Positions 20,345 to 37,885 of a DNA stretch of 64,000 nt are shown here, piece after piece. The DNA is from Escherichia phage AV108. Both the position numbers and the translations under genes were made by a program. The stretch lies in sequence record OR352938.1; one strand, given 5' to 3'. How positions within the stretch are numbered: position 1 is the first letter of the stretch; each line of letters opens with the position of its first letter. Under the pieces are notes generated by a model, which saw only the letters and a list, made by a program, of their open reading frames with translations, had not been told where the DNA came from and ran no database searches.

Positions 20345-21577
20345 TTATACTGCCATTTGAGCGGTGATCGCTGGATGGCTTTGATAGTTGTGAATTTTAA
20401 AGTCTTTCGGAGTCTTTGTCAATACCTCATCTAAAGATTTAAATTCCGGCAACTCAATTGTTGGTTTATCAAACGGAACACGGCTTAACTGTTCCATAAC
20501 TTGATCAAAGTGGTTTTTGTAAATGTGAGTATCTCCACCAGAGAAAATCAGTTCTCCTACCTCAAGATCACACATTTTCGCTATGATGTGAGTTAACAGC
20601 GCATAGCTGGCAACATTAAAGGGCAAGCCCAAAAAGCTGTCTACGCTTCGCTGAAACCACATACAAGACAGTTTACCTTCATTGACGTAGAATTGCACGA
20701 AAGGATGACATACACCCAATACAGCATTATGTGTTCCTTGTACGTTCCATGAGTCAATAATGATCCGGCGATCCGTTGGATTGTTTTTAATTTGTTCAAT
20801 CACGTTTTGTAACTGGTCTTCCCAAATCTTCGGGCGATAGACATATTCTTCATCGTCTTTAGTGCTCGATGTGTCTACGTCCATACTAGCAAAGATCGTG
20901 GTATCTGGTGCTAAAATATCCCCACCCAGATAATCACTATCAAGTAGATAACCGAAATAACCATCATCTACCCATTCCTGGAATCCCCACAAGCAATATG
21001 CATCATTAACAAAATTAGATTGAGTCTTCCAGTGATCTGCTACTAAGAATTGATTATATTCAGAATCAAACTCTTCATAACGCATACCACGCCAGATAGC
21101 ACATAAACGGTCTTCTGTGTCGTTGGTTGGCGTAAAGTCTTCTACCCACGGGTGCTTAAATGTATGTGCATATTTGCTCTTAACGCGCTTAATTTTGATT
21201 TCACCGTGTGGATGAATCGGTTTGCGTCGCCATGCCATACCATACATATTGCCGACATTATAACCATTGAATCGCAAAGGATTCTTTTCTTTCATATCAA
21301 GACAGTTGCCGCGCCAAATGTCGAAGGCTTCTTCGTCAAACTTACCGCGTGTAATTTCCTGTAAGCGACGGCGGTCAAGTGATCCCTCCATAAACCATAG
21401 CAATTCGCCAATTACAGAGGCTGTAGCCATCTTTTTAGTGGTCAGTAATGGGAAACCCTTGCTTAAATCAATTCGCATCTCTGCGCCGAATTTAGAGAGC
21501 GTACCTACCCCCGTGCGGTCTTCACGAGGCCAGCCATTATCAAGAACATCACGCAACAGTTTCAAATATTCTTTCAT
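20345..21577 (-). CDS. td: thymidylate synthase with a large internal insertion
   Basis: TS motifs DRTGVGT, RRIIIDSWNV, CHPFVQFYV, GLPFNVASYALL, GGDTHIYKNH; about 115 extra residues between YGMAWR and EDQLQNV; continuous frame. Confidence 0.88.
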   Translation of the reverse strand: MKEYLKLLRDVLDNGWPREDRTGVGTLSKFGAEMRIDLSKGFPLLTTKKMATASVIGELLWFMEGSLDRRRLQEITRGKFDEEAFDIWRGNCLDMKEKNPLRFNGYNVGNMYGMAWRRKPIHPHGEIKIKRVKSKYAHTFKHPWVEDFTPTNDTEDRLCAIWRGMRYEEFDSEYNQFLVADHWKTQSNFVNDAYCLWGFQEWVDDGYFGYLLDSDYLGGDILAPDTTIFASMDVDTSSTKDDEEYVYRPKIWEDQLQNVIEQIKNNPTDRRIIIDSWNVQGTHNAVLGVCHPFVQFYVNEGKLSCMWFQRSVDSFLGLPFNVASYALLTHIIAKMCDLEVGELIFSGGDTHIYKNHFDQVMEQLSRVPFDKPTIELPEFKSLDEVLTKTPKDFKIHNYQSHPAITAQMAV

Positions 21578-22502: not shown

Positions 22503-22832
22503 TCAAATCAGTTTGAAATAGTTTTCGTTTACATTTTCTTCTGTGATTGCTGTCTTAAATTCTTGACCGTTATCCTGTGTGATGAAATAACGGTCAGAAT
22601 AATCACGAAAACGTTTTAAGTGAGATACCCCAACATTAACACCATTTTCCCAGAAACGAAAGGTAATCATTTTTGGTTCATATCGATAGTCGCTGGTTAA
22701 CACAGTACCATCCCCGCGACGGGCTTCATAAACCGTAATACATTCACGATTAGCGGCTTTAAGGCATTCTTCAATAGTGCCGCACGAGATAATACTTACT
22801 TTTTCATCTACGATTTGTTCTACAGTCCACAT
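22503..22832 (-). CDS. hypothetical protein
   Basis: ORF track 22503..22865; the promoter 22864-22891 overlaps that start, likely start ATG 22830-22832 with GAGAGG RBS. Confidence 0.45.
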   Translation of the reverse strand: MWTVEQIVDEKVSIISCGTIEECLKAANRECITVYEARRGDGTVLTSDYRYEPKMITFRFWENGVNVGVSHLKRFRDYSDRYFITQDNGQEFKTAITEENVNENYFKLI

Positions 22833-22863: not shown

Positions 22864-22891
22864 ATTATACACTATTGCGTTACGCTGTCAA
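22864..22891 (-). promoter_or_regulatory. sigma70-type early promoter
   Basis: tgtcaa 22886-22891 and attata 22864-22869. Confidence 0.45.
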
Positions 22892-24058
22892 CTCTTTTTC
22901 AAAAGATTTTACGATATACATGATGGTGCTCAATTCGGACGGCGCTACTGTCTCTGTGTAGCCATCCGGCATATCTTCTTTCGAGATATAGGAAGTTTTA
23001 CCTTTCATTACTTCCTTGATTTTGTTCTCTAATTCTAAGATCTTTTGACCGTCTTGTAAAGTCAATTCATAAAAGATCTCATGATCGAACTTTGAAACAC
23101 GAGATTGGTTTCTCATGCGCTCATGTGTTTCTTTGTTTGTTATTCCAAATTTCACGCCAACAAAGGAATCATTGTTGGTTAATTTCTGTATATAAAGAGT
23201 TCCTGTCTTTAATGCCTGATAACCATGCTTAGAACACAACGGGCAGCGTGTTCCGCGATTAACAAAATTATCAATAGTTACATCCCATTCATGGTTACGT
23301 TCGCATGTCAGAAGTATTCTTGTTAATGCACCTTTCCACTTTCCTGAAATCCCAATAAATTTTAGTCTGTTGGTTTCGCATATTTTTTCAATTTGTTTTA
23401 ATCGGTCACTTTTTGTTATTGGTGCTGTTCCGCTACATTTGCGACACCGACGACCTAGTTTGAACTTATCATAACTTTGTTCGTAAATGTGATTATTAGG
23501 ACACTCAAATTTAAGTTTAGTTTTTGTTCCTCTCCATTCCCCAATTATACCCAAAAATTTATAATCTCCTTTATTTTCATTTATATAAGATAAGGAATCT
23601 TCTTTATCATGCATCTTGCCCCCGTTACATAAAGGACATCTTGTTTTTTGATGAATGAAATCTGTATATGTTGGTTGGTATGTGTGTCCGTTTGTACAGT
23701 TCATAATGAGTCTTGTTCTGCTATTTTTATACTCCCCACCAACAAAACCAACAAATACATCGTTTGTTTCTTGTTTTATTCTTTCTATCACATTGTTTGG
23801 GTTTAATCTTTGAGAATCAACCACACATTTCTTACACGAAACGTTTTTCCTGATATTTGCTAGAGTTGATGTGTATTCATGCTTGTTATTACATAATATA
23901 AGAGCTTTTGTTTTGAGACCAGACCATTCTCCAACAAACCCCATGAAAGAATAACCAACTTCCAAACATGAATTTTTTACAACATTTTCCCAATAGAAGG
24001 GAGTTTTCGTGTTTCCTTTTATTTCTATACTAATCTCATGTGCTTGACGTACTAACAT
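22880..24058 (-). CDS. four-repeat Cys/His module protein with a GIY-YIG-like C-terminal segment
   Basis: four tandem modules of about 65 aa of form F-x-G-(F/I)-x-G-(E/K)-(W/Y)-x(4)-(T/R)-x(4)-C-x(2,3)-H-x(14,15)-C-x(2)-C; C-terminal LYIQKL-N9-VGVKFGIT; start taken at ATG 24056-24058 with GGAGGA RBS; ORF track to 24103. Confidence 0.5.
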   Translation of the reverse strand: MLVRQAHEISIEIKGNTKTPFYWENVVKNSCLEVGYSFMGFVGEWSGLKTKALILCNNKHEYTSTLANIRKNVSCKKCVVDSQRLNPNNVIERIKQETNDVFVGFVGGEYKNSRTRLIMNCTNGHTYQPTYTDFIHQKTRCPLCNGGKMHDKEDSLSYINENKGDYKFLGIIGEWRGTKTKLKFECPNNHIYEQSYDKFKLGRRCRKCSGTAPITKSDRLKQIEKICETNRLKFIGISGKWKGALTRILLTCERNHEWDVTIDNFVNRGTRCPLCSKHGYQALKTGTLYIQKLTNNDSFVGVKFGITNKETHERMRNQSRVSKFDHEIFYELTLQDGQKILELENKIKEVMKGKTSYISKEDMPDGYTETVAPSELSTIMYIVKSFEKELTA

Positions 24059-24088
24059 ATTTTTATCCTCCGTTGTTTCGATGATTGT

Positions 24089-24116
24089 ATTATACATTAC
24101 CACATCAGCATGTCAA
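24089..24116 (-). promoter_or_regulatory. sigma70-type early promoter
   Basis: tgtcaa 24111-24116, attata 24089-24094. Confidence 0.45.
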
Positions 24117-24142
24117 TACATTTTCATAAAATTTTAGGCAAT

Positions 24143-24168
24143 AAAAAAAGCCTTCCCGAAGGAAGGCT
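24143..24168 (-). terminator. rho-independent terminator after gene 32
   Basis: hairpin AGCCTTCC-cgaa-GGAAGGCT followed by a U-run on the minus-strand transcript. Confidence 0.65.
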
Positions 24169-24178
24169 TTAAAATTCA

Positions 24179-25147
24179 TTACATCCCTAACAGAGCGTCA
24201 AGATCATCCAGATCAGAAGCGGAGGAAGTACCGCCACCCAGGTCCAGAGATGCCATCAGGTCATCAGCGGAAGAATCTAACGCCGTGCTAGCTGCGTTAA
24301 TACCAACTACAGTGCTAGCTGCGGTAGTACCAGCGTCGAATGCATTCATCTGTGCGTCAAAATCATCAAGCTGGCTGTTAATCGCTGCCGCAGCACTGGA
24401 AGCCGCAGCACCAGCTACCATAGAAACGCCCATAGTTTTCTTAAATTTGGTTTCCAGTTCATCGAACGGTTTAAACTGGCTAGGCGCTACAATCTCACTC
24501 AGATCAACCATGTTTTCCATCAGATATTTCTGATATGCTTCGTCTTCAATTTTCGGAAGCTGTGATTGCTGCATGAAACGAGAATCATCATAGTTCTGGT
24601 GTTTATCAACCTTCTTAGCTTTCAGGAGGAAGTTAGCACCGGAGAACACACAAGTTACATCTACCGGAACTTCGCCCATGTCGGTATTCACGTTCACCAT
24701 TGCAACGATCTTATCATAAATTTTCTGACCGAAGCGGAATTTGAATACCTTACCTTCATTTTCTGGTGCTTGAGGATCTTTCAGTACCAGAATGTTTGCG
24801 TAGTAAGACGCTTTACGCTTAATCAGTTGCCATTCGGTTTTATCGGTATTGTATAGGTCTTTTTCGTTAATATATTTGCACACAGGGCAAGAATCAAAAT
24901 CACCGTGGGTGCTGGAGCAGTTTTCCCAATACCATTTACCATTAACTTTGAAGGAATGGTTTACCAGTTTCACAATCGGCAGACCGTCTTCTGTCTTAGA
25001 CGGCAGGAAGCGAATCAGGGCTTCACCGTTACCTGCTGCATCAGTCTTAATCTTCCACTCTTTCGGATCTTCTTTGGAGAAACCGTTGCCACCTTTCAGT
25101 GCGGCCAGTTGAGCTTGTAGTTTGGAAGAATCTTGGCGTTTAAACAT
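24179..25147 (-). CDS. 32: single-stranded DNA-binding protein
   Basis: collinear with T4 gp32 as recalled ([40 protein letters not shown]); Ala/Ser/Asp-rich acidic tail; start at MFKRQ (25145-25147). Confidence 0.92.
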
Positions 25148-25207
25148 ATTCACTATTCCTTCTTTTGATTGATTTACTAGACTATTATACAGATTTAAGT
25201 TTACTTG

Positions 25208-25888
25208 TCAACTATTTGTTTCTGCTTTTAATTGAGATATTTCTTTACACTCTTTAACTACTTTAACAAATAATGCTCTTGCTTTTGCGGCGTCAATAAC
25301 AAGTAGTTTCTTGTACGCCTTCATTTTAACACTATAAGTTTGCCAAATCAAGTCTTTGGCTACCTTGTCGTGTTCGTCGATTATATTTAGAAAGCTATCT
25401 AACAACATAAACGACTCAAACGATATAATCCGATTTTGCAGTAGTTTAAAGATACCGCTAGTTTCGGTTGCGGGATTATATGTAATTAGCTCTTTAAGAG
25501 TAACCCCGCGTTTCTCTGAGAAGTATACAAGACTTTTAATGTCATCGTCAAATCGTGTTGCCGCATCAGTGATTTTACCGATGTACTCCATGTAAAACCC
25601 GTATGCGTCAACATCGGTGATTTCACCTACCCATGCATCGGTATTAGCTACCAGATTGCTTAAGAATAGGAAGTATAATTCTCTTAGATTGTACTTTTCC
25701 GCTAATTTTGCGAAATAATACTTATCTCTGCGTTTATTGAATGCGGCATCAGACAACCGCATCCTCCAATTGTATTTTACGCAATCATAACGCCCGTTCA
25801 TATGAGCTTTCATCATGCAATATAACATATACACAGATTTAGCATTAATTCGCATATCTGGATCTGGAGGAAGACGGTTTCTGATCAT
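25208..25888 (-). CDS. 59: helicase loader
   Basis: collinear with T4 gp59 as recalled (KSVYMLYCMMKAHMNGRYD, KYNWRMRLSDAAFNKRRDKYYF, IISFESFMLLDSFLNIIDEHD). Confidence 0.9.
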   Translation of the reverse strand: MIRNRLPPDPDMRINAKSVYMLYCMMKAHMNGRYDCVKYNWRMRLSDAAFNKRRDKYYFAKLAEKYNLRELYFLFLSNLVANTDAWVGEITDVDAYGFYMEYIGKITDAATRFDDDIKSLVYFSEKRGVTLKELITYNPATETSGIFKLLQNRIISFESFMLLDSFLNIIDEHDKVAKDLIWQTYSVKMKAYKKLLVIDAAKARALFVKVVKECKEISQLKAETNS

Positions 25889-25897
25889 ACATACCCC

Positions 25898-26167
25898 TTA
25901 AATATCGAGAGTGTTGGTCGGTTCGTCGATCACTCCCTTCCTGAGCGTTCTATTTACTATACATTCTTGTGTGATCTTGTCAATGATGGACACCGGAATA
26001 TATTTCTGATAGTGACCATATTCTATAGAGTTTTCCTCTACAAACTGAGTTGTCGCTTCAAGATAAGTCAATCCCTCTTCAACAACCAGTTTTTCGATTG
26101 CAAGACCGTTTGCTGTTTTATTCGCGGCTTTTACCGCATGTTCATTAAGCATTGAACACCCGATCAT
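25898..26167 (-). CDS. 33: late-transcription co-activator gp33-like protein
   Basis: LTYLEATTQFVEENSI ... YIPVSIIDKI resembles recalled T4 gp33; position between 59 and rnh; real start may lie upstream of the listed ATG. Confidence 0.5.
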   Translation of the reverse strand: MIGCSMLNEHAVKAANKTANGLAIEKLVVEEGLTYLEATTQFVEENSIEYGHYQKYIPVSIIDKITQECIVNRTLRKGVIDEPTNTLDI

Positions 26168-26420
26168 AGAGTTCTACTGCTTCATCGCGTTCTGCTTCGA
26201 AGGTTTCGCGCTGTTGCTGGTGATACAGTTTAAACAGAATGCCCCACATTTTACCATCTACGCCTAATTCTTCTTTAGCACGCTGTTTGATCTCTTTGAT
26301 CTTATCGCCGTATGCTTCTTGAATGGTTTTCTGATCGCTGGCTTCTTTAATCAGTTGTGCCAGGGTATTTCCGTGTACATTTTCATCGAATACTACTTTT
26401 TCTTTTTTCTGTTCAGTCAT
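26145..26420 (-). CDS. hypothetical protein (DsbA-like by position and size only)
   Basis: 91 aa, lysine/glutamate rich, sits where T4 has dsbA. Confidence 0.35.
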   Translation of the reverse strand: MTEQKKEKVVFDENVHGNTLAQLIKEASDQKTIQEAYGDKIKEIKQRAKEELGVDGKMWGILFKLYHQQQRETFEAERDEAVELYDRVFNA

Positions 26421-26425
26421 AATAT

Positions 26426-27025
26426 TTAACCCTCTTTCGTCATTAATTGAAAACCACGTTCAGCTTTTGAAATTTCGCTAGGACTTAAATCGTCACCAAC
26501 ATATTCTAGCATCATTTCTCGGATAATGTCAAGTGCTTTTTCATCACCTGATTTTAACTCGAACTCAAGTTCATAATGAGCAGTGTTTCCCAATCCTTCG
26601 CCTACTTTGCCATAATAGAAAGTGTCTTTGCACATTTCCACTATACCACAACCCATATCTAGAGTCAATGACTTGCGATATGTCATTACTTGCATTATTG
26701 CAGTGATATAGTCGGAGTTTACCCCTAGACTATCAATAAAATGGACGAACTCATCCCAATTTGAAAATGTCATTTCCTCGCGGTTGAATAGTCCAGATTC
26801 ATTATCACCCATTTTGACCATGATCTCTGATTTTCTACAGTCAAGTCGTGCATAAATTCCTTTTTGACGTAGCGCATGATCTTCGGTATCATAATAAAAT
26901 TCGTGTTTTAATATGTTATCTCGGTCTAAGAGATTGTACCCGTCATACATTGCCACCCACAAATCACAGATGGTTTCGACGCCAATTTGTGAGTGTGCAT
27001 AGTATTTTAATTCAAGTTCTTTCAT
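26426..27025 (-). CDS. CYTH-like (triphosphate tunnel metalloenzyme) domain protein
   Basis: N-terminal ExExK (MKELELKYY), later R-rich segment and ELEFELK acidic pair; length about 200 aa. Confidence 0.4.
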   Translation of the reverse strand: MKELELKYYAHSQIGVETICDLWVAMYDGYNLLDRDNILKHEFYYDTEDHALRQKGIYARLDCRKSEIMVKMGDNESGLFNREEMTFSNWDEFVHFIDSLGVNSDYITAIMQVMTYRKSLTLDMGCGIVEMCKDTFYYGKVGEGLGNTAHYELEFELKSGDEKALDIIREMMLEYVGDDLSPSEISKAERGFQLMTKEG

Positions 27026-27035
27026 GTGTCAACCC

Positions 27036-27983
27036 TTAGAACTCACCAATTTTCTGTAACATTTTAACTAACGCATTTGTTACAAAATAGTTATAAATTT
27101 TACCGCGTGGTGCTGGTTTAGATTTTTCCCATGCTAACAAAATTTCATATTCGATGTTATCAGGAATAAATTCAAAATCAATAAGTTCGCGGTTTTCGTC
27201 AAAGCGTCGTGCTTCTTCCTCTGTCATCAAAGACTTTGGATCTTCGGCATCGAAAATTTGCTCTAACCATTTGGTTGCAATTGGTTTAGCTCGTTCTCCT
27301 TCCAGTCGTGAGATAATGAAATCACTACGGCACTTGATAGAAGCTACACCGTCTTTTGCGTCACCCTTAACACATTTTACCATAAGGTCTTTGTAAGGGC
27401 TACCATATTTGCATTTCTTCCACGCTTTCTGTACTGGCGACCACTGTTTCACGTTTTTGTATTTGTGCAACTGTGTGTAGTCACCATCGCCGGAGTTGAT
27501 TAGCACCTGGCGACCTTCTACAGAAAACTTTTTAGTTAATACAGCGATTATATCATCCGCTTCAACTTTGTCAACCTTAATAACGTGATAAGGCATGTTC
27601 TCTTTAAACTCTTCGGTGATCTTATTGATCGCAGCAAAGATCATCTCCCAATCACGCGGATCTGCGTCTCGTTTTTCTTTACGGTTGCGTTTATAGTAAG
27701 GTGCGATATCACGTCGCCAGTAACCTTTGCTTGAATCAAAGGCAAGTACCGTAATTGGGTATTGCTCTTTGAATTTTGTCATATTATAACGCATGGTGTC
27801 AAGGATAAGATGACGGATCATACCTTCATTAATAGGATCTTCCGGTTTAAAGGTATGTGAGATAGTAGCAATCATAAGCTGCGACATATCAATCAAATGC
27901 ACACCTTCCGGCAGTTTATCTTCTGGATCATCGAAGAAATCATTAAGTGTAGCGGTCGTTTTTGTAAATGGGTTATACGTCAT
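27036..27983 (-). CDS. rnh: RNase H / flap endonuclease
   Basis: collinear with T4 RNase H as recalled (GYWRRD, YYKRNR, VEADDIIAVL, DGDYTQLHKYKNVKQWSP, PRGKIYNYF). Confidence 0.85.
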   Translation of the reverse strand: MTYNPFTKTTATLNDFFDDPEDKLPEGVHLIDMSQLMIATISHTFKPEDPINEGMIRHLILDTMRYNMTKFKEQYPITVLAFDSSKGYWRRDIAPYYKRNRKEKRDADPRDWEMIFAAINKITEEFKENMPYHVIKVDKVEADDIIAVLTKKFSVEGRQVLINSGDGDYTQLHKYKNVKQWSPVQKAWKKCKYGSPYKDLMVKCVKGDAKDGVASIKCRSDFIISRLEGERAKPIATKWLEQIFDAEDPKSLMTEEEARRFDENRELIDFEFIPDNIEYEILLAWEKSKPAPRGKIYNYFVTNALVKMLQKIGEF

Positions 27984-27985
27984 AA

Positions 27986-28171
27986 TTAAGTTCTCTCCAC
28001 TCTCACAACAACATATTCGCCAAACGAGTTAGATACTTCACGGTCATACCCGTACTTCTCCATAACTCGCAGAATTGCATTGTTTAATTCGGCGCGGAAA
28101 TAATTGTAATCCTTATCAGGGATTCTGTCAACTACCCATTTTGCACCTTCTGACAAATCAACTTTAACCAT
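27986..28171 (-). CDS. hypothetical protein
   Basis: 61-aa ORF upstream of rnh. Confidence 0.4.
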   Translation of the reverse strand: MVKVDLSEGAKWVVDRIPDKDYNYFRAELNNAILRVMEKYGYDREVSNSFGEYVVVRVERT

Positions 28172-28209
28172 AATATATCATCCTCTTTTGTTTCTATCAA
28201 GCCTTATTT

Positions 28210-28217
28210 TATAAATA
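28210..28217 (+). promoter_or_regulatory. T4-type late promoter (TATAAATA)
   Basis: exact TATAAATA 29 nt upstream of the gene 34 start, followed by AAGGAG RBS. Confidence 0.6.
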
Positions 28218-28245
28218 TGAACATACTATAAAAGGAGACCCAATA

Positions 28246-31200
28246 ATGGCAGATTTTTCTCAACATTTCAAGGCCACATTTGGCTTTGACGCTGGTAATG
28301 AAAAGGTCGTCAATGTAGCATACGCAGATAAAAACACATCAACGGATGCGGTCAACGTTGAATTTTTCAATTACCATAATGGCATTACTCAGTATGACAC
28401 AACTCGCGGTTATGATCAATACGGAACTACAATCTATCAAAACCGTCCGTATTATGCAAAAGAAGATATCACAAAGCCAGCAGGTGATTTTGACCCGACT
28501 AAATGGCAAGCACTGCGCACGGACCCACGTTGGGATTATATTGCAGCAACTTCCGGTGATACTCCTTTACAGTCTGGTGATTATATCGCAGCAGATGGTC
28601 AATTTGCAAACTTGACTTTCTCTATGCCAACTAAACCAGCAGAGGGAGACACTATAACAGTAAAAGATATCGGTGGCAAGTGTGGTGTTAACGAATTATC
28701 GTTCTTGAGTACAGGACATGAGTTTTACCATAACGGTAATGTGTACAACCGAAAATGGTATTGCACTACCCCGTATGCAATGAACTATTTCATCTTTGTT
28801 CGTAATCGTTGGCATGTTTATCAGACAGGAACAGAGCCACGCGGTGTGTACGCACAGCCAGCGATTGATGCTATTCAAATGCAGAATGGTGATCAGGTAT
28901 TTCGTCGTAGTTCGTTGGGTAATATTACCTTAGTGCTTCCTAAGTTTGCCAACAATGGCGACATGATCCAGACTACAGACCTTGACGGATTAACCGCAAC
29001 CAACCACGTTACGGTTAAAGTTCATGAGCACGCAGAAGAACAATCAATTGGCACGTCCGGTCTAAAAGAGATTATCGGTAAGCGTAGCGGTCATGGTGTA
29101 TTCATCTTTGACAAGACGGAAAACTTATGGCGTTTGTGGGATGGTGATCAGTCTGTTCGTCTTAAACCGATCATCGATGACACTCGCTTGCAACCTAATA
29201 GCTATGTTGCTGTATTTGGTGATCGTGATGTTACTCTGACGCTGCCGACCAATGTCGAGCCGGGTGATCGTATTCAAGTTTCTATGCAGTATATGAACGG
29301 AAACCAGAATTGCCGTATTATCGCCGCCACAGAGGATACAAAAATCCTTATGCAGAAAAACATGGTTCAGTTTCCTAAGCGTAGCGAGTACCCATTCAAT
29401 GGGACCGATACATGGACGGGAGTATCTGAATTGTCTTTCAACGCTGCAAATGATTATGTACCTTATCTGGAGTTCTCTTATTCAGAAGGTGATGATGGTA
29501 AGAAATACTGGTTGGTGGCACATGCTCACCCGATTGTAGAACGAGTAGATCCGACTCGTAAAGATCGTGTTGGTGTAATTGCACTGGCTACCCAAACTGA
29601 AACGAATAAAAACCATGAAGAGAATCCTAGCGACGAAGTTGCAGTAACACCAAAAATGCTGGCTAATAAAACCGCCAACGAAACTCGACGCGGTATTGCT
29701 CGCATTGCGACTCAAGCGGAAACGCATCAAGATACTGGTTCCAACTTCCTGGATGATGTTATCGTTACGCCTAAAAAGTTAAATGACTGTGTTGCTACCG
29801 AAGCCCGTCGTGGTGTGATGGAAATTGCAACCCAGCACGAAACCAATGAAGGTTTAGACGATACCCGCGCTATTACTCCTAAGAAATTAGAAGAACGTCG
29901 CGCTTCCGAAGATCTCGCTGGTATTGCTGAAATTGTTCAGGCTGGCGGCAGTGCTGCCGCTCGACGTGGCGAAGCTGGTACAGGGATCTATAACATCAAT
30001 GACCATGCTAAAATTGTTACGCCAAAAAACATCAACGAAGTCAAGGCGACCGAAACTTCCCGTGGTGTTGGCTATCTGGCAACTGACGCGGAAGTGCAAG
30101 GGGCTACAGAATCAACCCCGCAAGATGCTTTACTCATCACGACTCGCACGCTAACGAAACGTACTGCTACCGAATCGCGCACTGGTATCGCTGAAATTGC
30201 AACTCAGGAAGAAACAAACTTAGGTCAAAGTGATAACCATATCATCACGCCTAAAAAGTTGCATACTCGCCGCGCAACGGAAACTTTACACGGTTTAGCA
30301 GAAATTGCAACTCAGCCGGAATTTGACGCAGGTCGTGACGATGATCGCATTTCTACCCCATTGAAGATTAAAACCTTCTTTGAGAATGCACAGCGTTTGA
30401 AAGTAGATCCGACTCAGGGGCTTAACCTTACTGGTGATTTGTGGCAAGGTATCATGATCAGCGGTCTGGATGCAACCGAAGATACAAAAGGTGTCGCTAA
30501 AGTTGCGACTACTCAGCTTACTGACGCTGGTCAAGATGATACTACAATCATCACGCCTAAAAAGCTGCAAGGCAAAAAGGCCACCGAAGGTAAAGAAGGT
30601 ATTATCCGAGTTGGTACTCAAGCCGAAACCGTGGCTGGTATTATGGACAATGTAGCAATTTCTCCGAAGAACTTCAAATATGTTGTTCAGACAGAGGATA
30701 CATGGAAAGCAACCGAAGCGCGTCGTGGATTCTTGAAAGTTGCTACTCAGGAAAACTGTTTTGTTGGTGATAATCTGCAAGGTTCTACTCAAGAACTAGG
30801 AAACTACCAGCATGACGGAATTGCTGTTACCCCTAAAGGATTAAACTACGCACTTGCTAATTTCTTACCTAAGATGGCAACCGCTCAGAATAGTTTGAAA
30901 TTGGGTAACGTAGAGGCCTCTAAATGGGCGCGTAGAGACATTGATCAGACCATAGAGAGCAATTACACGTTTAATAAAAACGTTAACGTGAAGGGCGATT
31001 TAGAGTGCTTAAAATCAGGTTCCTTTGAAACTCTGTCTGTGACTAAGAACTCGACCGATGTTCCGAGTAATGGTCATCTGGTGTTGGGTGAGCGTGGAGT
31101 TGACGGTCACACCGGAATTACTCTGCATGGCACAACCGCATCGGAAGGCATGAAAAACTCTTGGTCTATTATCGTTGGTGGTACTGGAACAGCGCAAGTT

Positions 31201-31986
31201 GTTGATAGTGATGCTATCGCTTTCGGTAAAATCAATGATGGTGGAGTCGTTGAGCATTACGCCTTTGCTATGAAACACAATGGCGACGCGACAGCATATA
31301 GAGACTTTATTGCAGGTCGTAACCTGTATGCGAAACAAGGCGGTTTATACATTGTTGACCAGTCTAATCCGGCAATGACTCGTTCCTCAGATGGTATGCT
31401 GAATATCGGTCACGGTGGAAGTGTTAACATCAAGGCAGGTCATCAAACGTTAACTACAGAGATCGCCGGACAGAAATATCAGATCGTACACGCAGGAAAC
31501 GCCGACGAAGTTCTTAACCGTCAGTTTGTTAAGAATGCTGGCGATACAATGGTCGGTAAGCTGACTATGGATAATGCGCCTATTGTTTCTGTTAAGCATG
31601 AAGCTAGCGCGGCAACCGCTCCGGCAATCGGTAACATCGGTTTCTGGAATATGCGAGTTACTACCCAGAACATCAAAGAAACTTATCCAGAGAAGAAAAA
31701 CGGTACTCTGATGCAATGGGGTACTGACGCGGACGGGCTTACCCAGCTTTGGTCCCCTGATGGTACTCATAAACATTATATCCGTTCCGGTACTGGTGGT
31801 CAATGGACCGCATGGGGTGAAATTTACACCAAACAGAATAAGCCTACCGCTCAGGAAATCGGGGCAGTAGTTGCAGAAGGTGGTTTAATGAACTCTATGA
31901 CGGTTCGTGATTGGATCAAAGTTGGTAATGTTAAAATCATCGCCAATAATCTGACTCGTACCGTAGACTTTATCTGGGAAGACTAA
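28246..31986 (+). CDS. 34: long tail fiber proximal subunit
   Basis: 1246 aa; collinear with T4 gp34 as recalled, including the repeated ATQxETNxG ... ITPKKL modules and C-terminal RDWIKVGNVKI. Confidence 0.92.
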   Translation: MADFSQHFKATFGFDAGNEKVVNVAYADKNTSTDAVNVEFFNYHNGITQYDTTRGYDQYGTTIYQNRPYYAKEDITKPAGDFDPTKWQALRTDPRWDYIAATSGDTPLQSGDYIAADGQFANLTFSMPTKPAEGDTITVKDIGGKCGVNELSFLSTGHEFYHNGNVYNRKWYCTTPYAMNYFIFVRNRWHVYQTGTEPRGVYAQPAIDAIQMQNGDQVFRRSSLGNITLVLPKFANNGDMIQTTDLDGLTATNHVTVKVHEHAEEQSIGTSGLKEIIGKRSGHGVFIFDKTENLWRLWDGDQSVRLKPIIDDTRLQPNSYVAVFGDRDVTLTLPTNVEPGDRIQVSMQYMNGNQNCRIIAATEDTKILMQKNMVQFPKRSEYPFNGTDTWTGVSELSFNAANDYVPYLEFSYSEGDDGKKYWLVAHAHPIVERVDPTRKDRVGVIALATQTETNKNHEENPSDEVAVTPKMLANKTANETRRGIARIATQAETHQDTGSNFLDDVIVTPKKLNDCVATEARRGVMEIATQHETNEGLDDTRAITPKKLEERRASEDLAGIAEIVQAGGSAAARRGEAGTGIYNINDHAKIVTPKNINEVKATETSRGVGYLATDAEVQGATESTPQDALLITTRTLTKRTATESRTGIAEIATQEETNLGQSDNHIITPKKLHTRRATETLHGLAEIATQPEFDAGRDDDRISTPLKIKTFFENAQRLKVDPTQGLNLTGDLWQGIMISGLDATEDTKGVAKVATTQLTDAGQDDTTIITPKKLQGKKATEGKEGIIRVGTQAETVAGIMDNVAISPKNFKYVVQTEDTWKATEARRGFLKVATQENCFVGDNLQGSTQELGNYQHDGIAVTPKGLNYALANFLPKMATAQNSLKLGNVEASKWARRDIDQTIESNYTFNKNVNVKGDLECLKSGSFETLSVTKNSTDVPSNGHLVLGERGVDGHTGITLHGTTASEGMKNSWSIIVGGTGTAQVVDSDAIAFGKINDGGVVEHYAFAMKHNGDATAYRDFIAGRNLYAKQGGLYIVDQSNPAMTRSSDGMLNIGHGGSVNIKAGHQTLTTEIAGQKYQIVHAGNADEVLNRQFVKNAGDTMVGKLTMDNAPIVSVKHEASAATAPAIGNIGFWNMRVTTQNIKETYPEKKNGTLMQWGTDADGLTQLWSPDGTHKHYIRSGTGGQWTAWGEIYTKQNKPTAQEIGAVVAEGGLMNSMTVRDWIKVGNVKIIANNLTRTVDFIWED

Positions 31987-33361: not shown

Positions 33362-34852
33362 ATGGCAGATTTGAAATATGGATCTACTGTAGGTGGATCT
33401 CCCATTTGGACGCAAGGAAACTTGACGATCCAGCCAGCGGGGGATCAGCTTTTCTACAAAGGTCATAAAATCTATACCGCTTTTGATAGACCTTCGGCTA
33501 CCGATTTTGATGCTGTTAGTGCATCCGAAGGTGGCACATTTCAAAAGCAAGTTCATTTCGAGGAAGGTTTAAGCGTAGGTAGCGCATCGGCTGGAGAAAC
33601 CAAAAAGAATGGTATCTTTAAAGGTCAGAGCGACGCTGCTAATTTTGACGGCGTAAGCTGGGGTTTGCATTCATGGAAGTCAATCGGCTTTGTTAATGCC
33701 CGTGATGGCGTTATTATGGCGTATATTGACACCACAACGGGCGAATTTAAGTCTAAAGGGACTATCGAAGGGACAACCATTAAAGACACAGGTCAACGTG
33801 TCTATAGCCCTGTTAATAAACCAACGAATAATGATTTGGATTTAGTTTCCCGTCGCGGTGATACTCTCTCAGGAACGTATAATTTAAACACTGTCACTGT
33901 TAAACTATCGGTTGATTCGAAATTAATTGCAAGGGAACGTGATTTAATTAATTTTGATGCGACTAAGATCTATTATGGTAACGTTCTTGATACGTTGGTC
34001 TTCCGAAGTAAAGATGAGCCTACCATTTTTGTTAATGGCAGAGAAGGTCGTTTTTATCACACCAACAATAAACCAACTAAAGACGATGTTGGACTAGGCA
34101 ATGTCACCAATGATGCACAGGTTAAACGTGCTGGTGATATTATGGAAGGTAACTTGCAAGCGCCTAGAATGTTGGCGACAAACGATCCCGCTGGTCCTAA
34201 TGAATTGGTTCGTTTGAGCTACTTTGAGAAAAAATCAATGGTGGCAAATCCAACCATCATTGGAAATGTTGATTGGAACACTCTTATTAATCGCGGTATC
34301 TATCGTGTGGAAAATGCTGGGTCTGGTACTAATAAACCGTCTGATAGCTATTATAACGGCGTTTTGATGGTATATCGCCCAGAAGATGCGGTCGGTACTC
34401 GTCGAATTGTTCAGGTGTATTATCCTGAATCTATTGACCATCCTATGTGCTGGCGTTCGTGTTCTAATGAATCCTGGACTGCATGGAACTATGTAGATCA
34501 CCGTAAATTAGCCGATATTCGCTATGTTAACGTAACTGGCGATACCATGACAGGACCGTTAACTGTTCCGGCTGCAAATGGCGTTAGAACAGCTAAAACT
34601 AACTATAACGGGGATAACTGTTATGCGGCGTTAAGCGGTGCTGATGGTACTGCTATGATTCACCGCATTAGTGATATTAAAGGGACCGAAAAGCTGGGGA
34701 TCACCCACGACTCAAAGGTCGTGTTTTTCCGTTCTAGAAACAATACTCAAACCGTGGACCGCTATCAGCTTTATCATGAAGGTAATAAACCTACTCCGGC
34801 TGATGTTGGAGCGGTTCCACTTAATGCGGTGATTGATTTTGGTACTTTCTAA
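33362..34852 (+). CDS. 36: long tail fiber distal subunit (small), enlarged
   Basis: N-terminus MADLKYGSTVGGSPIWTQGN matches T4 gp36 as recalled; 496 aa against 221 aa in T4. Confidence 0.8.
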   Translation: MADLKYGSTVGGSPIWTQGNLTIQPAGDQLFYKGHKIYTAFDRPSATDFDAVSASEGGTFQKQVHFEEGLSVGSASAGETKKNGIFKGQSDAANFDGVSWGLHSWKSIGFVNARDGVIMAYIDTTTGEFKSKGTIEGTTIKDTGQRVYSPVNKPTNNDLDLVSRRGDTLSGTYNLNTVTVKLSVDSKLIARERDLINFDATKIYYGNVLDTLVFRSKDEPTIFVNGREGRFYHTNNKPTKDDVGLGNVTNDAQVKRAGDIMEGNLQAPRMLATNDPAGPNELVRLSYFEKKSMVANPTIIGNVDWNTLINRGIYRVENAGSGTNKPSDSYYNGVLMVYRPEDAVGTRRIVQVYYPESIDHPMCWRSCSNESWTAWNYVDHRKLADIRYVNVTGDTMTGPLTVPAANGVRTAKTNYNGDNCYAALSGADGTAMIHRISDIKGTEKLGITHDSKVVFFRSRNNTQTVDRYQLYHEGNKPTPADVGAVPLNAVIDFGTF

Positions 34853-34862
34853 TTTTAGCGGG

Positions 34863-34882
34863 GATTATCTCCCCGCTTTTCT
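34863..34882 (+). other. stem-loop between genes 36 and 37
   Basis: AGCGGGGA-ttat-CTCCCCGCT then U-run; gene 37 has no TATAAATA of its own. Confidence 0.45.
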
Positions 34883-34922
34883 AAATAATATTATTCTAAT
34901 AACCGTTTAAGGATTTTATAAA

Positions 34923-37844
34923 ATGGCAGATTTAAGCAGAATCCAATTTAAACGCACTAGCACTAAAGGTCGTAAACCGGATGCTAGTACGATGAATCCG
35001 GGGGAATTGGCAATCAACCTTGCGGATCAATATCTTCTTACTAAAAATGATTCCGGTGATATTATCAATTTAAGTTGTCCTCCGGTGTATGACCGCGATG
35101 TTACAATGGCGGGTAAGGTTAAAGGTAATAATTATATCTTAAGTAAAACCGCTAACTATCTGGAAGATCAGACAGCGAGAGATCTTAACTACTTTGGCGC
35201 TTTCCGTACCAATGGTCTTGATGGTCTTCTCGAACTCACGCTAAACGTTCCTCACTCTTACGGCGTCCAACATGGTCGAGGATTTACTTTCCAATATGGG
35301 CACACTGGATCGCGTGTAGAAACTTATGGATACAATAAAGAAGGTCAAAAAGCATTTAGCTATAAAATGTATCACGAAGGTGATAAACCTACTCCCTCAG
35401 AATTGAACGTTTATAGCAAACAAGAAATTGACAGAATGTTTATTAAAAACGTTAAAATGTCTGTTCCTTCCGGTGACGCAACTCGTGGTTACTTTAAGAT
35501 CGCGACCGCAATGATTCCTCAGAATAATGGTCGAATGGCATTTTTACGGATTTACGGCGGAAACGGATATAATGTTAACTCCTACGATCAGGTGGAGTTC
35601 CTTGAAATTGTGATTCGTGGTGGTAATAATAACCCTAAAGGTGTTAGTATTGCTGCATATCGTCGTAATTCTTTGAACGTCCATGAAGTATTTGCAATTA
35701 ATACTTCCGGTGATAACTATGACATTTATGTTAACTATGGTCGTTACACCGATAACGTTATTGTAGAGTTTGGAAAAACTGTTGATGTTGCATTGACTGT
35801 TCACGATGTTCCTGAATTTTCGGCGACTAAACCCGCAACCGGAACTAAATTTGATGCTCGTGTTATTACGATGTTCAACACCGAAAACAAAGCCGGAACG
35901 TTGATGTTTGATAATAACGGTCAAGGAACATATGATATTATCAGCTTGAATAACTCGACTGATATCAATAAAAAATATCTTCGTAAGTTTCGTAGCAAAT
36001 CCACAGAAACAATATGGCATGAGGTTGTCGAGGGTAGCGTATATCGTTTAGCTACTGGCGTTACTGATCAGTCAGACCAACTAAAAATTGATTTTAATGG
36101 GGTTACTGTAAATCGTCTTTTCGTTAAGGGAAATAATGCTATCAGAATGGAGCGTAGAGACGGACAAAGTAATTACCTAGAATTTTATGATTATCGTTCC
36201 GGTGCTAACCGCCGTCAAGGTTATCTAGGGTATGGTGACGGTACTACTAACACCGTACAGTTAGTAAATGAATTAACGGAAGGTAATAACTCATTAAGAC
36301 TGGATGATACTGGTCAGGTTACGTTGTCTGTAGGCAAAACAAAAATTGTATATACCAACGGACAATATTATTCCGCTAACTCTGATGCATATCGTATGAT
36401 CTATGGCAATTACGGTGCATTCTGGCGCAATGACGGGACTAAAGTTTATCTTCTTTCCACCGAAGAAAATGACCATTTTGGTGGATGGAACGGCAACCGA
36501 CCATTCATTTACGATTTGACGACTGGTAAAGTTACTTTAGGTGGTGACGGTAACGAAGGTGCATTAGTTCTTGAAAGAGATAGCCGTGCTGCTAGATTTG
36601 CTGGCGACATTTACGTTGGCAAAGGGATGTTAACATTTGATGCCGGACGATTAAATTCTCGTGATTACTTCCGGTTTAACCATTGGGGCGATAGCAATAA
36701 CGCTCGTGATAACATCTTACAGCTTGACGATAGCAAAGGCGCACACTTCACCACTGAACGTACTTTAGCAACTGGTGCAATTAAAACTAAATTCTTCGGT
36801 GATTTGGAATCTGCTGGTCAAATTAAATGGGGTAAAGGGACCGCCACATCTACGTTTACTCTACGTGTATGGGGTAACGATAGTCGTAAACAAATATTTG
36901 AATGCGGCGATGAAAGCGGGTGGCATTGGTATACCCAACGAGCGGGGGGTCCTGGTACAAATGATATTATATTCAATGTTAACGGGAAATTTCAATCTCA
37001 GGGTTTTGAGACTTCCGGTAATATTAAGATAACTGGTCCAGACCTTGAGTTTCGTCGCACTGGTAATAAGCATATCTGGTTTAGAGATCCAAACGGCTTA
37101 GAGTTAGGCGTGATGTACTGCGATGATGCTGGTGCTATTCGCTTCCGTGGTCAGAAACAAGCCCAGTCGTGGAAATTTGCAGATAAAATGATCCAGTTGG
37201 AATCTGGTACTGTATCCGGTGGCGGTAATGGCCTGATTCGTGGTGAAGTTGCTGGCGGTAGTTGGGCTAGCTGGCGTGACCGTGCTGCTGGCCTTATGGT
37301 TGGGTGTCCTCAATCAACCAATTCCGCTCATAACATCTGGAAAGCTACTCATTGGGGTAAATATCACATCGCAGCAATGGGTGTACACGTTCCTAGCGGT
37401 ACTATCGGTAATGCTATAGCTCGCCTAAACGTTCATGACGCCAACTTTGACTTTAGCGCCTCCGGTGACATGTCGGCAGGGCGTAACGGTTCGTTTAACG
37501 ATGTGTACATTCGTTCTGATGCTCGCCTGAAAATCAATAAGGAAGAGTATAAAGAGAATGCCACCGATAAAGTTAATCGCTTGACGGTATACACCTATGA
37601 CAAGGTTAAATCTTTAACCGACCGTACTGTCATTGCTCATGAAGTTGGTATTATTGCTCAGGATCTTGAAAAAGAATTGCCGGAAGCCGTAACAACTTCT
37701 AAGATCGGAGATCCAGATAATCCAGAAGAGATCTTAACAATTTCTAACTCTGCTGTCAACGCTCTTTTAATTAAGGCGTTTCAGGAAATGAGCGAAGAAT
37801 TGAAAGCCGTTAAAGCTGAACTAGCGGAACTTAAAAAGAATTAA
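34923..37844 (+). CDS. 37: long tail fiber distal subunit (large), with a C-terminal chaperone-like domain
   Basis: N-terminus MADLSRIQFKRTSTKGRKP matches T4 gp37 as recalled; C-terminal 130 aa carry an SDARLK motif and coiled-coil tail like peptidase S74 intramolecular chaperones. Confidence 0.85.
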   Translation: MADLSRIQFKRTSTKGRKPDASTMNPGELAINLADQYLLTKNDSGDIINLSCPPVYDRDVTMAGKVKGNNYILSKTANYLEDQTARDLNYFGAFRTNGLDGLLELTLNVPHSYGVQHGRGFTFQYGHTGSRVETYGYNKEGQKAFSYKMYHEGDKPTPSELNVYSKQEIDRMFIKNVKMSVPSGDATRGYFKIATAMIPQNNGRMAFLRIYGGNGYNVNSYDQVEFLEIVIRGGNNNPKGVSIAAYRRNSLNVHEVFAINTSGDNYDIYVNYGRYTDNVIVEFGKTVDVALTVHDVPEFSATKPATGTKFDARVITMFNTENKAGTLMFDNNGQGTYDIISLNNSTDINKKYLRKFRSKSTETIWHEVVEGSVYRLATGVTDQSDQLKIDFNGVTVNRLFVKGNNAIRMERRDGQSNYLEFYDYRSGANRRQGYLGYGDGTTNTVQLVNELTEGNNSLRLDDTGQVTLSVGKTKIVYTNGQYYSANSDAYRMIYGNYGAFWRNDGTKVYLLSTEENDHFGGWNGNRPFIYDLTTGKVTLGGDGNEGALVLERDSRAARFAGDIYVGKGMLTFDAGRLNSRDYFRFNHWGDSNNARDNILQLDDSKGAHFTTERTLATGAIKTKFFGDLESAGQIKWGKGTATSTFTLRVWGNDSRKQIFECGDESGWHWYTQRAGGPGTNDIIFNVNGKFQSQGFETSGNIKITGPDLEFRRTGNKHIWFRDPNGLELGVMYCDDAGAIRFRGQKQAQSWKFADKMIQLESGTVSGGGNGLIRGEVAGGSWASWRDRAAGLMVGCPQSTNSAHNIWKATHWGKYHIAAMGVHVPSGTIGNAIARLNVHDANFDFSASGDMSAGRNGSFNDVYIRSDARLKINKEEYKENATDKVNRLTVYTYDKVKSLTDRTVIAHEVGIIAQDLEKELPEAVTTSKIGDPDNPEEILTISNSAVNALLIKAFQEMSEELKAVKAELAELKKN

Positions 37845-37885
37845 GGAAAATCCCAGGGAAGGGAAACTACTAAGGAGAAACGGCT

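Follow-up and report, generated by a model that had tools for sequence, protein, structure and literature searches.

Escherichia phage AV108 is a Krischvirus (RB49/Phi1-like Straboviridae). The stretch of its genome analyzed here, 64,000 nucleotides of sequence record OR352938.1 (the window), carries between rnh and dsbA an open reading frame (ORF) of 199 codons, which starts with ATG at the upper end of 26426..27025 on the minus strand and encodes a protein with the N-terminus MKELELKYY. Sequence profiles and a predicted structure confirm that this protein belongs to the CYTH family of triphosphate-tunnel metalloenzymes (TTMs) and is most like YgiF of Escherichia coli. A first-pass annotation, made from the sequence alone, had reported a 199-residue ORF inserted between rnh and the 33/dsbA region, and this is borne out by the ORF list and by the neighboring genes that Pfam names. 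The genes of the region are as follows.

24179..25153, minus strand: gene 32 (from the Pfam scan of neighbors)
25208..25888, minus strand: gene 59 (from the same scan)
25898..26167, minus strand: gene 33 (PF16805)
26145..26420, minus strand: dsbA, the downstream neighbor (Pfam Phage_DsbA, PF11126, E=5e-22)
26426..27025, minus strand: the CYTH/TTM gene, YgiF-like and stand-alone, orthologue of RB49p245 / RB49ORF244c, phrog_14893
27036..27983, minus strand: rnh (RNase H / FEN), the upstream neighbor (Pfam RNaseH_C, E=2.6e-37, and 5_3_exonuc_N)
27986..28171, minus strand: a 61-residue ORF, the neighbor upstream of rnh
28246..31986, opposite strand to the CYTH gene: gene 34 (long tail fiber)

The ATG of the CYTH gene lies 10 nt past the rnh stop codon, dsbA begins 5 nt past the CYTH stop codon, and the dsbA Shine-Dalgarno sequence GAGGG is embedded in the final CYTH codons (K-E-G-stop; sequence ACGAAAGAGGGTTAAATATTATG). 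The gene thus packed is located within the replication and transcription cluster that runs from rnh to dsbA, 33, 59, and 32, and it is probably co-expressed with these neighbors.

The motif pattern on which the first-pass annotation had based its assignment to the CYTH family is not a chance resemblance. The protein matches Pfam CYTH (PF01928) over residues 27-191 with 29.5 bits (gathering score 23.2; E=8e-7), and precomputed PF01928 matches are present on most homologues. A profile built from 20 homologues matches the N-terminal domain of E. coli YgiF (PDB 5a60) over residues 2-196 with E=1.7e-12. A single-sequence phmmer search against PDB found YgiF only marginally (E=1.2), so that the family profile is needed to reach this relative. 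In PHROGs, the gene falls into phrog_14893, which is labeled 'unknown function', and an NCBIfam scan gave no meaningful match. An AlphaFold2 model computed on the homologue alignment (mean pLDDT 93.6, pTM 0.86) has eight long strands and four main helices, and the best PDB structure matches of this model are all TTMs. Thus, the structure prediction proposed with the initial assignment yielded a confident model with the eight-stranded CYTH/TTM fold. The closest relation in both sequence and structure, including a plug helix of the SKAxRGY type, is the TTM domain of YgiF, a member of the TTM-CHAD inorganic triphosphatases (cluster 1 in the sequence similarity network of Vogt et al.).

The CYTH/YgiF domain assignment as such is already public. 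The RefSeq entry for the RB49 protein (NP_891816.1) carries the note 'similar to P45267, P30871, HI1598, ygiF'; Nolan et al. (2006) listed RB49ORF244c as a CYTH domain with E=0.0026 (PMC1524935); and a few GenBank records label the gene 'inorganic triphosphatase' or 'adenylate cyclase'. The present analysis adds a firm assignment of structure and catalytic residues, excludes the annotation as a cyclase, and describes a Y-x-R-x-D variant and a mosaic cassette within the gene.

The roles of the active-site residues of YgiF are known from mutagenesis or crystallography (Martinez et al. 2015, PMC4641920). E160 is the ligand of metal 1; E4, E6, and E162 are those of metal 2, the ion that positions the attacking water; R56 acts in catalysis; and K69 binds the substrate and orients E4. 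In the alignment, each of these has a counterpart in the phage protein: E4/E6/K8 correspond to E3/E5/K7, R56 to R60, K69 to K71, E160 to E154, and E162 to E156. The tunnel residues thus align one-to-one with the YgiF catalytic residues. The four elements that contain most of them are located as follows.

27005..27019, minus strand: ExExK (E3-L-E5-L-K7); E3 and E5 correspond to YgiF E4 and E6 (metal site 2), K7 to K8; invariant
26840..26854, minus strand: Y58-A-R60-L-D62 in strand beta3; R60 corresponds to the catalytic Arg (YgiF R56), D62 occupies the YgiF R58 position
26552..26578, minus strand: H150-Y-E152-L-E154-F-E156-L-K158 in strand beta8; E154 corresponds to YgiF E160 (metal 1), E156 to YgiF E162 (metal 2)
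26453..26470, minus strand: S186-K-A-E-R190-G191 in the C-terminal plug helix; S186, K187, R190, and G191 invariant, including YgiF (SKAARGY)

The mapped catalytic and metal-binding residues are invariant in YgiF and in all phage alleles, down to 30% identity. This holds for the N-terminal ExExK, which the first-pass annotation had pointed out and which is found as E3-x-E5-x-K7 in all homologues; for both metal sites (E154 for site 1; E156, E3, and E5 for site 2); and for R60, which also corresponds to R52 of AtTTM3. Further conserved positions are K7, R82/E84, R117, E130, D134, E152, K158, and the plug-helix segment S186-K-A-E-R190-G. According to the criteria of Vogt et al. (PMC8233210), an intact ExE together with the retained R60 is the pattern of a hydrolase.

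By alignment, the phage tunnel is nevertheless not an exact copy of that of YgiF, as is evident at Y58 and D62. The RxR pair on beta3 is not kept: it reads R60-L-D62, with Asp in 7/8 phage lineages and Asn in P0046, whereas YgiF and the bacterial relatives have Arg at the YgiF R58 position (the counterpart in thiamine triphosphatase, ThTPase, is R57). Y58 aligns with W53 of ThTPase, A54 of SaTTM, and G54 of YgiF; the ThTPase sequence used for this alignment is identical to 3tvl_A. According to Vogt et al. (2021, PMC8233210), only ThTPases and plant TTM1/2 are aromatic here, and the remaining clusters carry a small residue. In the clade members furthest from AV108, P0045, P0046, and P0051, position 58 is Val or Ile. 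In addition, four tunnel residues, K40, C132, Y138, and H150, are invariant in the phage clade and absent from YgiF.

Comparison with characterized systems places these differences in context. YgiF (P30871; PDB 5a60/5a61) is an inorganic triphosphatase and short-chain polyphosphatase composed of a TTM and a CHAD domain. It shares with the phage protein the ExExK motif, the catalytic Arg, the K69 equivalent, an RxE on beta5, the ExExE on beta8, and an SKAxRG plug helix, and the phage protein has the length of the YgiF TTM domain (1-200). In contrast to YgiF, the phage protein lacks the polyphosphate-binding CHAD domain (no PF05235 match; the protein ends at residue 199, directly past the plug helix), has D62 for R58 and Y58 for G54, carries the extra invariant residues listed above, is only 22-28% identical, and is phage-encoded and fast-evolving. 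Stand-alone bacterial CYTH proteins (for example, P0044, P0049, P0054 'triphosphatase'; BH2851, 2gfg; the NeuTTM/CthTTM class) are also single-domain proteins, of ~190-230 residues. They share ExExK, RxR, ExExE, and SKAERGY motifs and are 26-31% identical to the phage protein, but the second Arg is retained in them (RLR), and their position 58 is not aromatic. The mammalian 25-kDa ThTPase (3bhd, 3tvl, 5a64) shows no significant sequence similarity and has the second Arg where the phage protein has Asp; its W/Y-x-R-x-R motif is represented by Y58-x-R60-x-D62, with the aromatic residue and the first Arg present and the second Arg replaced. ThTPase orthology was considered and rejected: ThTPase is not among the profile hits at E<=10, and hhalign gave a probability of 1.2% for a local match of only 26 columns. 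The class IV adenylate cyclases (CyaB; 2fjt, 3n0y) differ in that all three of their signature motifs are missing from the phage protein. Other viral CYTH/TTM-fold proteins, i.e., Aeh1ORF004c, those of Aeromonas phages 65.2 and D3, A0A6J7WT37 from an uncultured member of Caudovirales, and the capping triphosphatases of giant viruses, are distant structural matches only (TMq 0.3-0.55, 10-16% identity), occur at other genomic positions, and are not orthologues.

The occurrence of the gene was examined in phage records and in metagenomic sequence collections. By tblastn, it was found in 58 phage records, all of Krischvirus, and proteins 100% identical to that of AV108 occur in phages GoldenSnicker, kvi, Aragogtheria, and others. 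The neighboring rnh was found in 1,740 records, exactly 58 of which have an rnh at least 90% identical. Since the two counts agree, the gene is genus-wide and, among cultured phages, genus-restricted. Only 8-10 nt separate rnh from the dsbA downstream of it in Tequatrovirus SV76, Tulanevirus 60AhydR15PP, Pseudotevenvirus RB43, and Jiaodavirus KP17. The view that a T4-type rnh-59 interval lacks this ORF is thus confirmed, with 58 positive Krischvirus records and an empty position in four other T4-like genera. One of the 58 records, vB_EcoM_G2494 (H39; MK327935.1 146593-147185), is the sole case in which the match is in two pieces, annotated as two hypothetical proteins, and its CYTH copy is possibly frameshifted or disrupted. 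A sequence labeled Escherichia coli (L017; GCA_038450185.1, ABRWMG010000001.1, 163,765 bp; 'hypothetical protein AAHF58_000195') is a complete Krischvirus-like genome with the same layout as the window, 34-rnh-CYTH-dsbA-33-59.

An exhaustive phmmer search over 1.84 billion representatives gave 8 hits only, and a profile search of a 5.8-billion set brought only P0051 and P0052 as new members of the phage clade; the few hits in such searches indicate that the clade is small. A pattern scan of viral contigs recovered only three near-identical Krischvirus loci. There are four divergent metagenomic lineages, P0043 (50% identity), P0045 (41%), P0051 (36%), and P0046 (34%), and in all of them the gene is located directly upstream of dsbA-33 and, where the contig reaches that far, downstream of rnh. 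The same junction in divergent lineages implies that the insertion is old and stable. The nearest bacterial relatives are stand-alone CYTH proteins (~26-31% identity), the closest of which, P0044, is chromosomal and adjoins PhoU-like and PHO4 phosphate-transport genes. The low identity to E. coli YgiF argues against a recent capture from the host.

When RB49, Skers, and metagenomic contigs of Krischvirus were compared with the window by sliding DNA identity, much of the CYTH gene proved to be a mosaic with sharp boundaries.

26555..26998, minus strand: variable mosaic cassette, codons ~10-157, with at least four allele lineages in near-identical Krischvirus backbones

The four allele types are those of the window and Phi1, of RB49, of Skers and P0035, and of P0042. 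The flanking genes rnh, dsbA, 33, and 59 are 93-100% identical in DNA. Between such backbones, the cassette is 47-67% identical in DNA; in the sliding comparison, identity within it is 33-69% for the Skers/P0035 and P0042 alleles and 73-96% for RB49, and it returns to 96-100% in the last ~130 bp of the CYTH gene. Between allele types, synonymous sites of the cassette are saturated (pS 0.72-0.82; the synonymous divergence, dS, of the 3' end is 0-0.13), and the ratio of nonsynonymous to synonymous divergence (dN/dS) is 0.14-0.44. Given the saturation at synonymous sites and a dN/dS below 1, the cassette is best described as a set of old alleles that recombination has exchanged between genomes and purifying selection has maintained; for the same reasons, positive selection is ruled out as its cause. 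Within the cassette, strand positions facing the tunnel, as assigned by strand register rather than measured on coordinates, are much better conserved than those facing outward (mean identity 0.71 vs 0.48, Mann-Whitney p=1.2e-4), and helices and loops are the most variable part of the cassette. Over the same genome pairs, the amino acid sequence of the CYTH protein changes 3-4 times faster than those of rnh, dsbA, and 33; against L003, for example, dN is 0.46 for CYTH and 0.12-0.16 for the neighbors.

Over the 64-kb window as a whole, mean identity to Skers is 95.1%; among the islands that can be aligned in full, none has a lower identity than the cassette. Strong divergence is otherwise seen in the distal tail-fiber region (34601..37851), which is partly unalignable. 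Further low-identity islands are located at 20501..20801 (thymidylate-synthase region) and 22551..22801 (a small hypothetical ORF), and several more are presence/absence indels. The rnh gene has a smaller mosaic patch of its own in the region for the C-terminal domain (~27132..27222, minus strand, codons ~255-284), with 56-58% identity to RB49, Skers, and L017 and 96-100% to L007, L008, L014, and L015.

Co-conversion by a homing endonuclease is not supported as the cause of the cassette, since the distance to the nearest homing-endonuclease genes exceeds 1 kb and both borders of the cassette lie inside the CYTH gene. These nearest genes are an HNH gene between 59 and 32 in Skers (L002 5802-6398) and in GCA_038450185.1 (L017 4805-5401), and a GIY-YIG-like ORF beyond 32. 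The window (25153..25208) and RB49 have no HNH gene between 59 and 32. The ORF downstream of gene 32 in the window (22880..24103, minus strand, GTG start, 407 residues) has about five C-x2-C ... C-x2-C repeats and a distinct C-terminal domain. Its counterparts are annotated as 'endonuclease' in RB49 (RB49p240) and as 'GIY-YIG nuclease family protein' in Skers, and it is probably a homing-type nuclease.

Two promoter-like elements lie in the conserved DNA at either end of the CYTH gene.

27004..27032, minus strand: sigma70-like TTGACA-N17-TAAAAT (scan score 11/12) at the 5' border of the cassette, with the -35 in the rnh/CYTH spacer and the -10 in codons 6-8
26503..26532, minus strand: TG-extended sigma70-like TTGACA-N18-TAGAAT (11/12 plus TG) in the conserved 3' part of the CYTH gene, ~80 nt upstream of the dsbA ATG

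The distant L003 and L020 share the TTGACA ahead of the CYTH ATG, and elements comparable to the 3' one occur in the RB49, P0042, P0034, Skers, P0045 (12/12), and P0046 loci. Judged by its sequence and position, the 3' element may be a promoter for dsbA-33-59, and a role of both border elements as promoters for downstream genes may help explain why the borders are conserved. Promoter-like sites are frequent in this region in general, with 24 in 24000..28400 compared with 13.5 +/- 3.4 expected, and a 12/12 TG-extended element, TTGACA-N16-TATAAT, is present within rnh (27547..27574, minus strand). A search near the CYTH gene for the T4-type late promoter core TATAAATA found none; one of the three copies in the window is at 28210..28217 on the plus strand, 29 nt upstream of the gene 34 start (28246).

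Taken together, the complete set of YgiF catalytic residues and the predicted fold make it probable that the protein is an active, stand-alone two-metal phosphohydrolase of the YgiF type that cleaves the terminal phosphate of a small substrate bearing a triphosphate. In the proposed mechanism, the interior of the eight-stranded beta-barrel would hold the triphosphate through K7, K40, R60, K71, R82, R117, K158, and K187/R190. Two Mg2+ or Mn2+ ions would be bound, one at site 1 on E154 and the other at site 2 on E3/E5/E156; metal 2 would activate the water that attacks the terminal phosphate, and R60 would assist the leaving group. From such a two-metal mechanism with R60, we would expect the reaction X-PPP -> X-PP + Pi, i.e., hydrolysis and not cyclization. 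A stand-alone enzyme of 199 residues is plausible, since the isolated TTM domain of YgiF (1-200) has been purified and assayed alone and the CHAD domain is reported to enhance YgiF activity (PMC6537752), which implies that the lone domain is active at a lower level. By homology, inorganic triphosphate (PPPi) or short polyphosphate would be the default substrate, with an organic triphosphate as a serious alternative because of Y58, D62, and the extra invariant residues K40, C132, Y138, and H150.

Several points weigh against an active phosphohydrolase of this kind. The replacement of a tunnel Arg by D62 could, from the alignment, alter or weaken triphosphate binding. The argument that conservation concentrates inside the tunnel depends on strand register. 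The gene evolves 3-4 times faster than its neighbors, which is compatible with a dispensable accessory gene. Literature searches (phage CYTH/TTM function, YgiF and phage, CYTH and defense) returned no experiment on a phage CYTH protein and no characterized phage CYTH/TTM enzyme. Finally, the physiological relevance of PPPi hydrolysis by YgiF itself has been doubted (PMC3440374), so that 'PPPase' may not be the true role.

Other explanations differ in the substrate, the reaction, or the presence of any activity. Specificity for an organic triphosphate (a nucleoside or deoxynucleoside triphosphate, thiamine or adenosine-thiamine triphosphate, or a triphosphate signaling nucleotide), with a heterocycle stacked on Tyr58 and a role in editing the nucleotide pool or destroying a host signal, is a real possibility, although we consider it distinctly less probable than its negation. 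It is suggested by the rare aromatic residue shared with ThTPases and plant TTM1/2; by D62, which replaces an Arg that contacts the beta and gamma phosphates (PMC8233210) and hence indicates that this is not a plain PPPi tunnel; by the four clade-specific invariant residues; and by a mosaic, fast-evolving surface that resembles host-interaction genes. The sole functional idea in print is of the same kind: Iyer et al. (2021) speculated that the CYTH and MazG triphosphatases of jumbo phages degrade canonical nucleoside triphosphates. However, the loss of Y58 in P0045, P0046, and P0051 means that this residue is not essential to the family, ThTPases lack significant sequence similarity to the phage protein, and the phage R82 appears to occupy the position of the ThTPase pocket residue Y79, as judged by strand register with the 3tvl sequence. 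The phosphate-transport genes beside the closest bacterial relative point to inorganic phosphate metabolism, and a scan of the CYTH protein against the PADLOC-DB defense models matched 0 families at E<=1. An extension of this idea, in which the protein would be a host-takeover or counter-defense factor that hydrolyzes a triphosphate small molecule relevant to infection, and whose outer surface would be polymorphic through an arms race with host factors, is in our opinion unlikely. Conceivable substrates include alarmones, nucleotide-derived immune signals, the triphosphates of thiamine and adenosine-thiamine, and the PPPi that dNTP triphosphohydrolases release. Such an arms race would account for the exchange of old, highly divergent versions of codons 10-157 between near-identical genomes with an unchanged tunnel, but the polymorphism would also fit an accessory gene that is dispensable and lies where recombination is frequent.

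The position of the gene 10 nt downstream of rnh, in every lineage that has it, raises the idea of an RNA 5'-triphosphatase coupled to the adjacent RNase H, which would take the gamma-phosphate off pppRNA primers or transcripts and thereby aid primer removal or alter stability. We regard this as very unlikely: Pfam mRNA_triPase has no match, and Cet1-like enzymes are not the closest structural likeness; the SKAERG plug helix is one typically seen in CYTH enzymes that act on small molecules; replication proceeds without the gene in four other T4-like genera; and where phage genes are so densely packed, adjacency says little. That the gene is a non-catalytic or dispensable passenger, i.e., a binder of a phosphorylated ligand or a decaying gene whose DNA is kept mainly for the dsbA-33-59 signals (promoter and ribosome-binding site), has still less to recommend it. 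Its high dN, the location of the sigma70-like elements and of the dsbA Shine-Dalgarno sequence in the borders with conserved DNA, and the two-piece G2494 record, which may be a frameshift, fit such a passenger, but the full-length ORF is intact in 57/58 records and in all metagenomic lineages, dN/dS is far below 1 even with saturated dS, and metal and catalytic residues invariant down to 30% identity are unexpected for a spacer or a simple binder. Least credible of all is the reading behind the annotation in phage PHB13, a class IV (CyaB-like) adenylate or nucleotidyl cyclase with cAMP or a different cyclic nucleotide as its product. One record (H22) carries the 'adenylate cyclase' label and CyaB structures are among the fold matches, but the protein fails 3/3 published motifs of this class (criteria from PMC8233210). 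With only M-K preceding ExExK, the HFxxxxExExK extension is impossible; beta8 reads ExE (E154-F-E156) and not ExA; and the first Arg of the xRx motif on beta3 (R60) is kept instead of a small residue. These motifs also exclude the nucleotide-cyclizing option that the first-pass annotation had left standing. Its other suggestions, interference with nucleotide signaling and processing of RNA 5' ends, remain speculation, and neither is favored by the evidence here.

The gene is fixed throughout a genus of T4-like coliphages that therapy collections make use of. Its two-metal active site is complete and carries two changes specific to the clade, Y58 and D62, and the gene is at the same time among the most polymorphic loci of an otherwise conserved replication cluster. 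The physiological substrate is uncertain even for E. coli YgiF. If the phage protein proved to be a plain tripolyphosphatase without a phenotype, it would be an ordinary accessory gene; otherwise, it offers a cheap and well-defined candidate for asking which triphosphate compound matters in a T-even-type infection and whether phages manipulate it.

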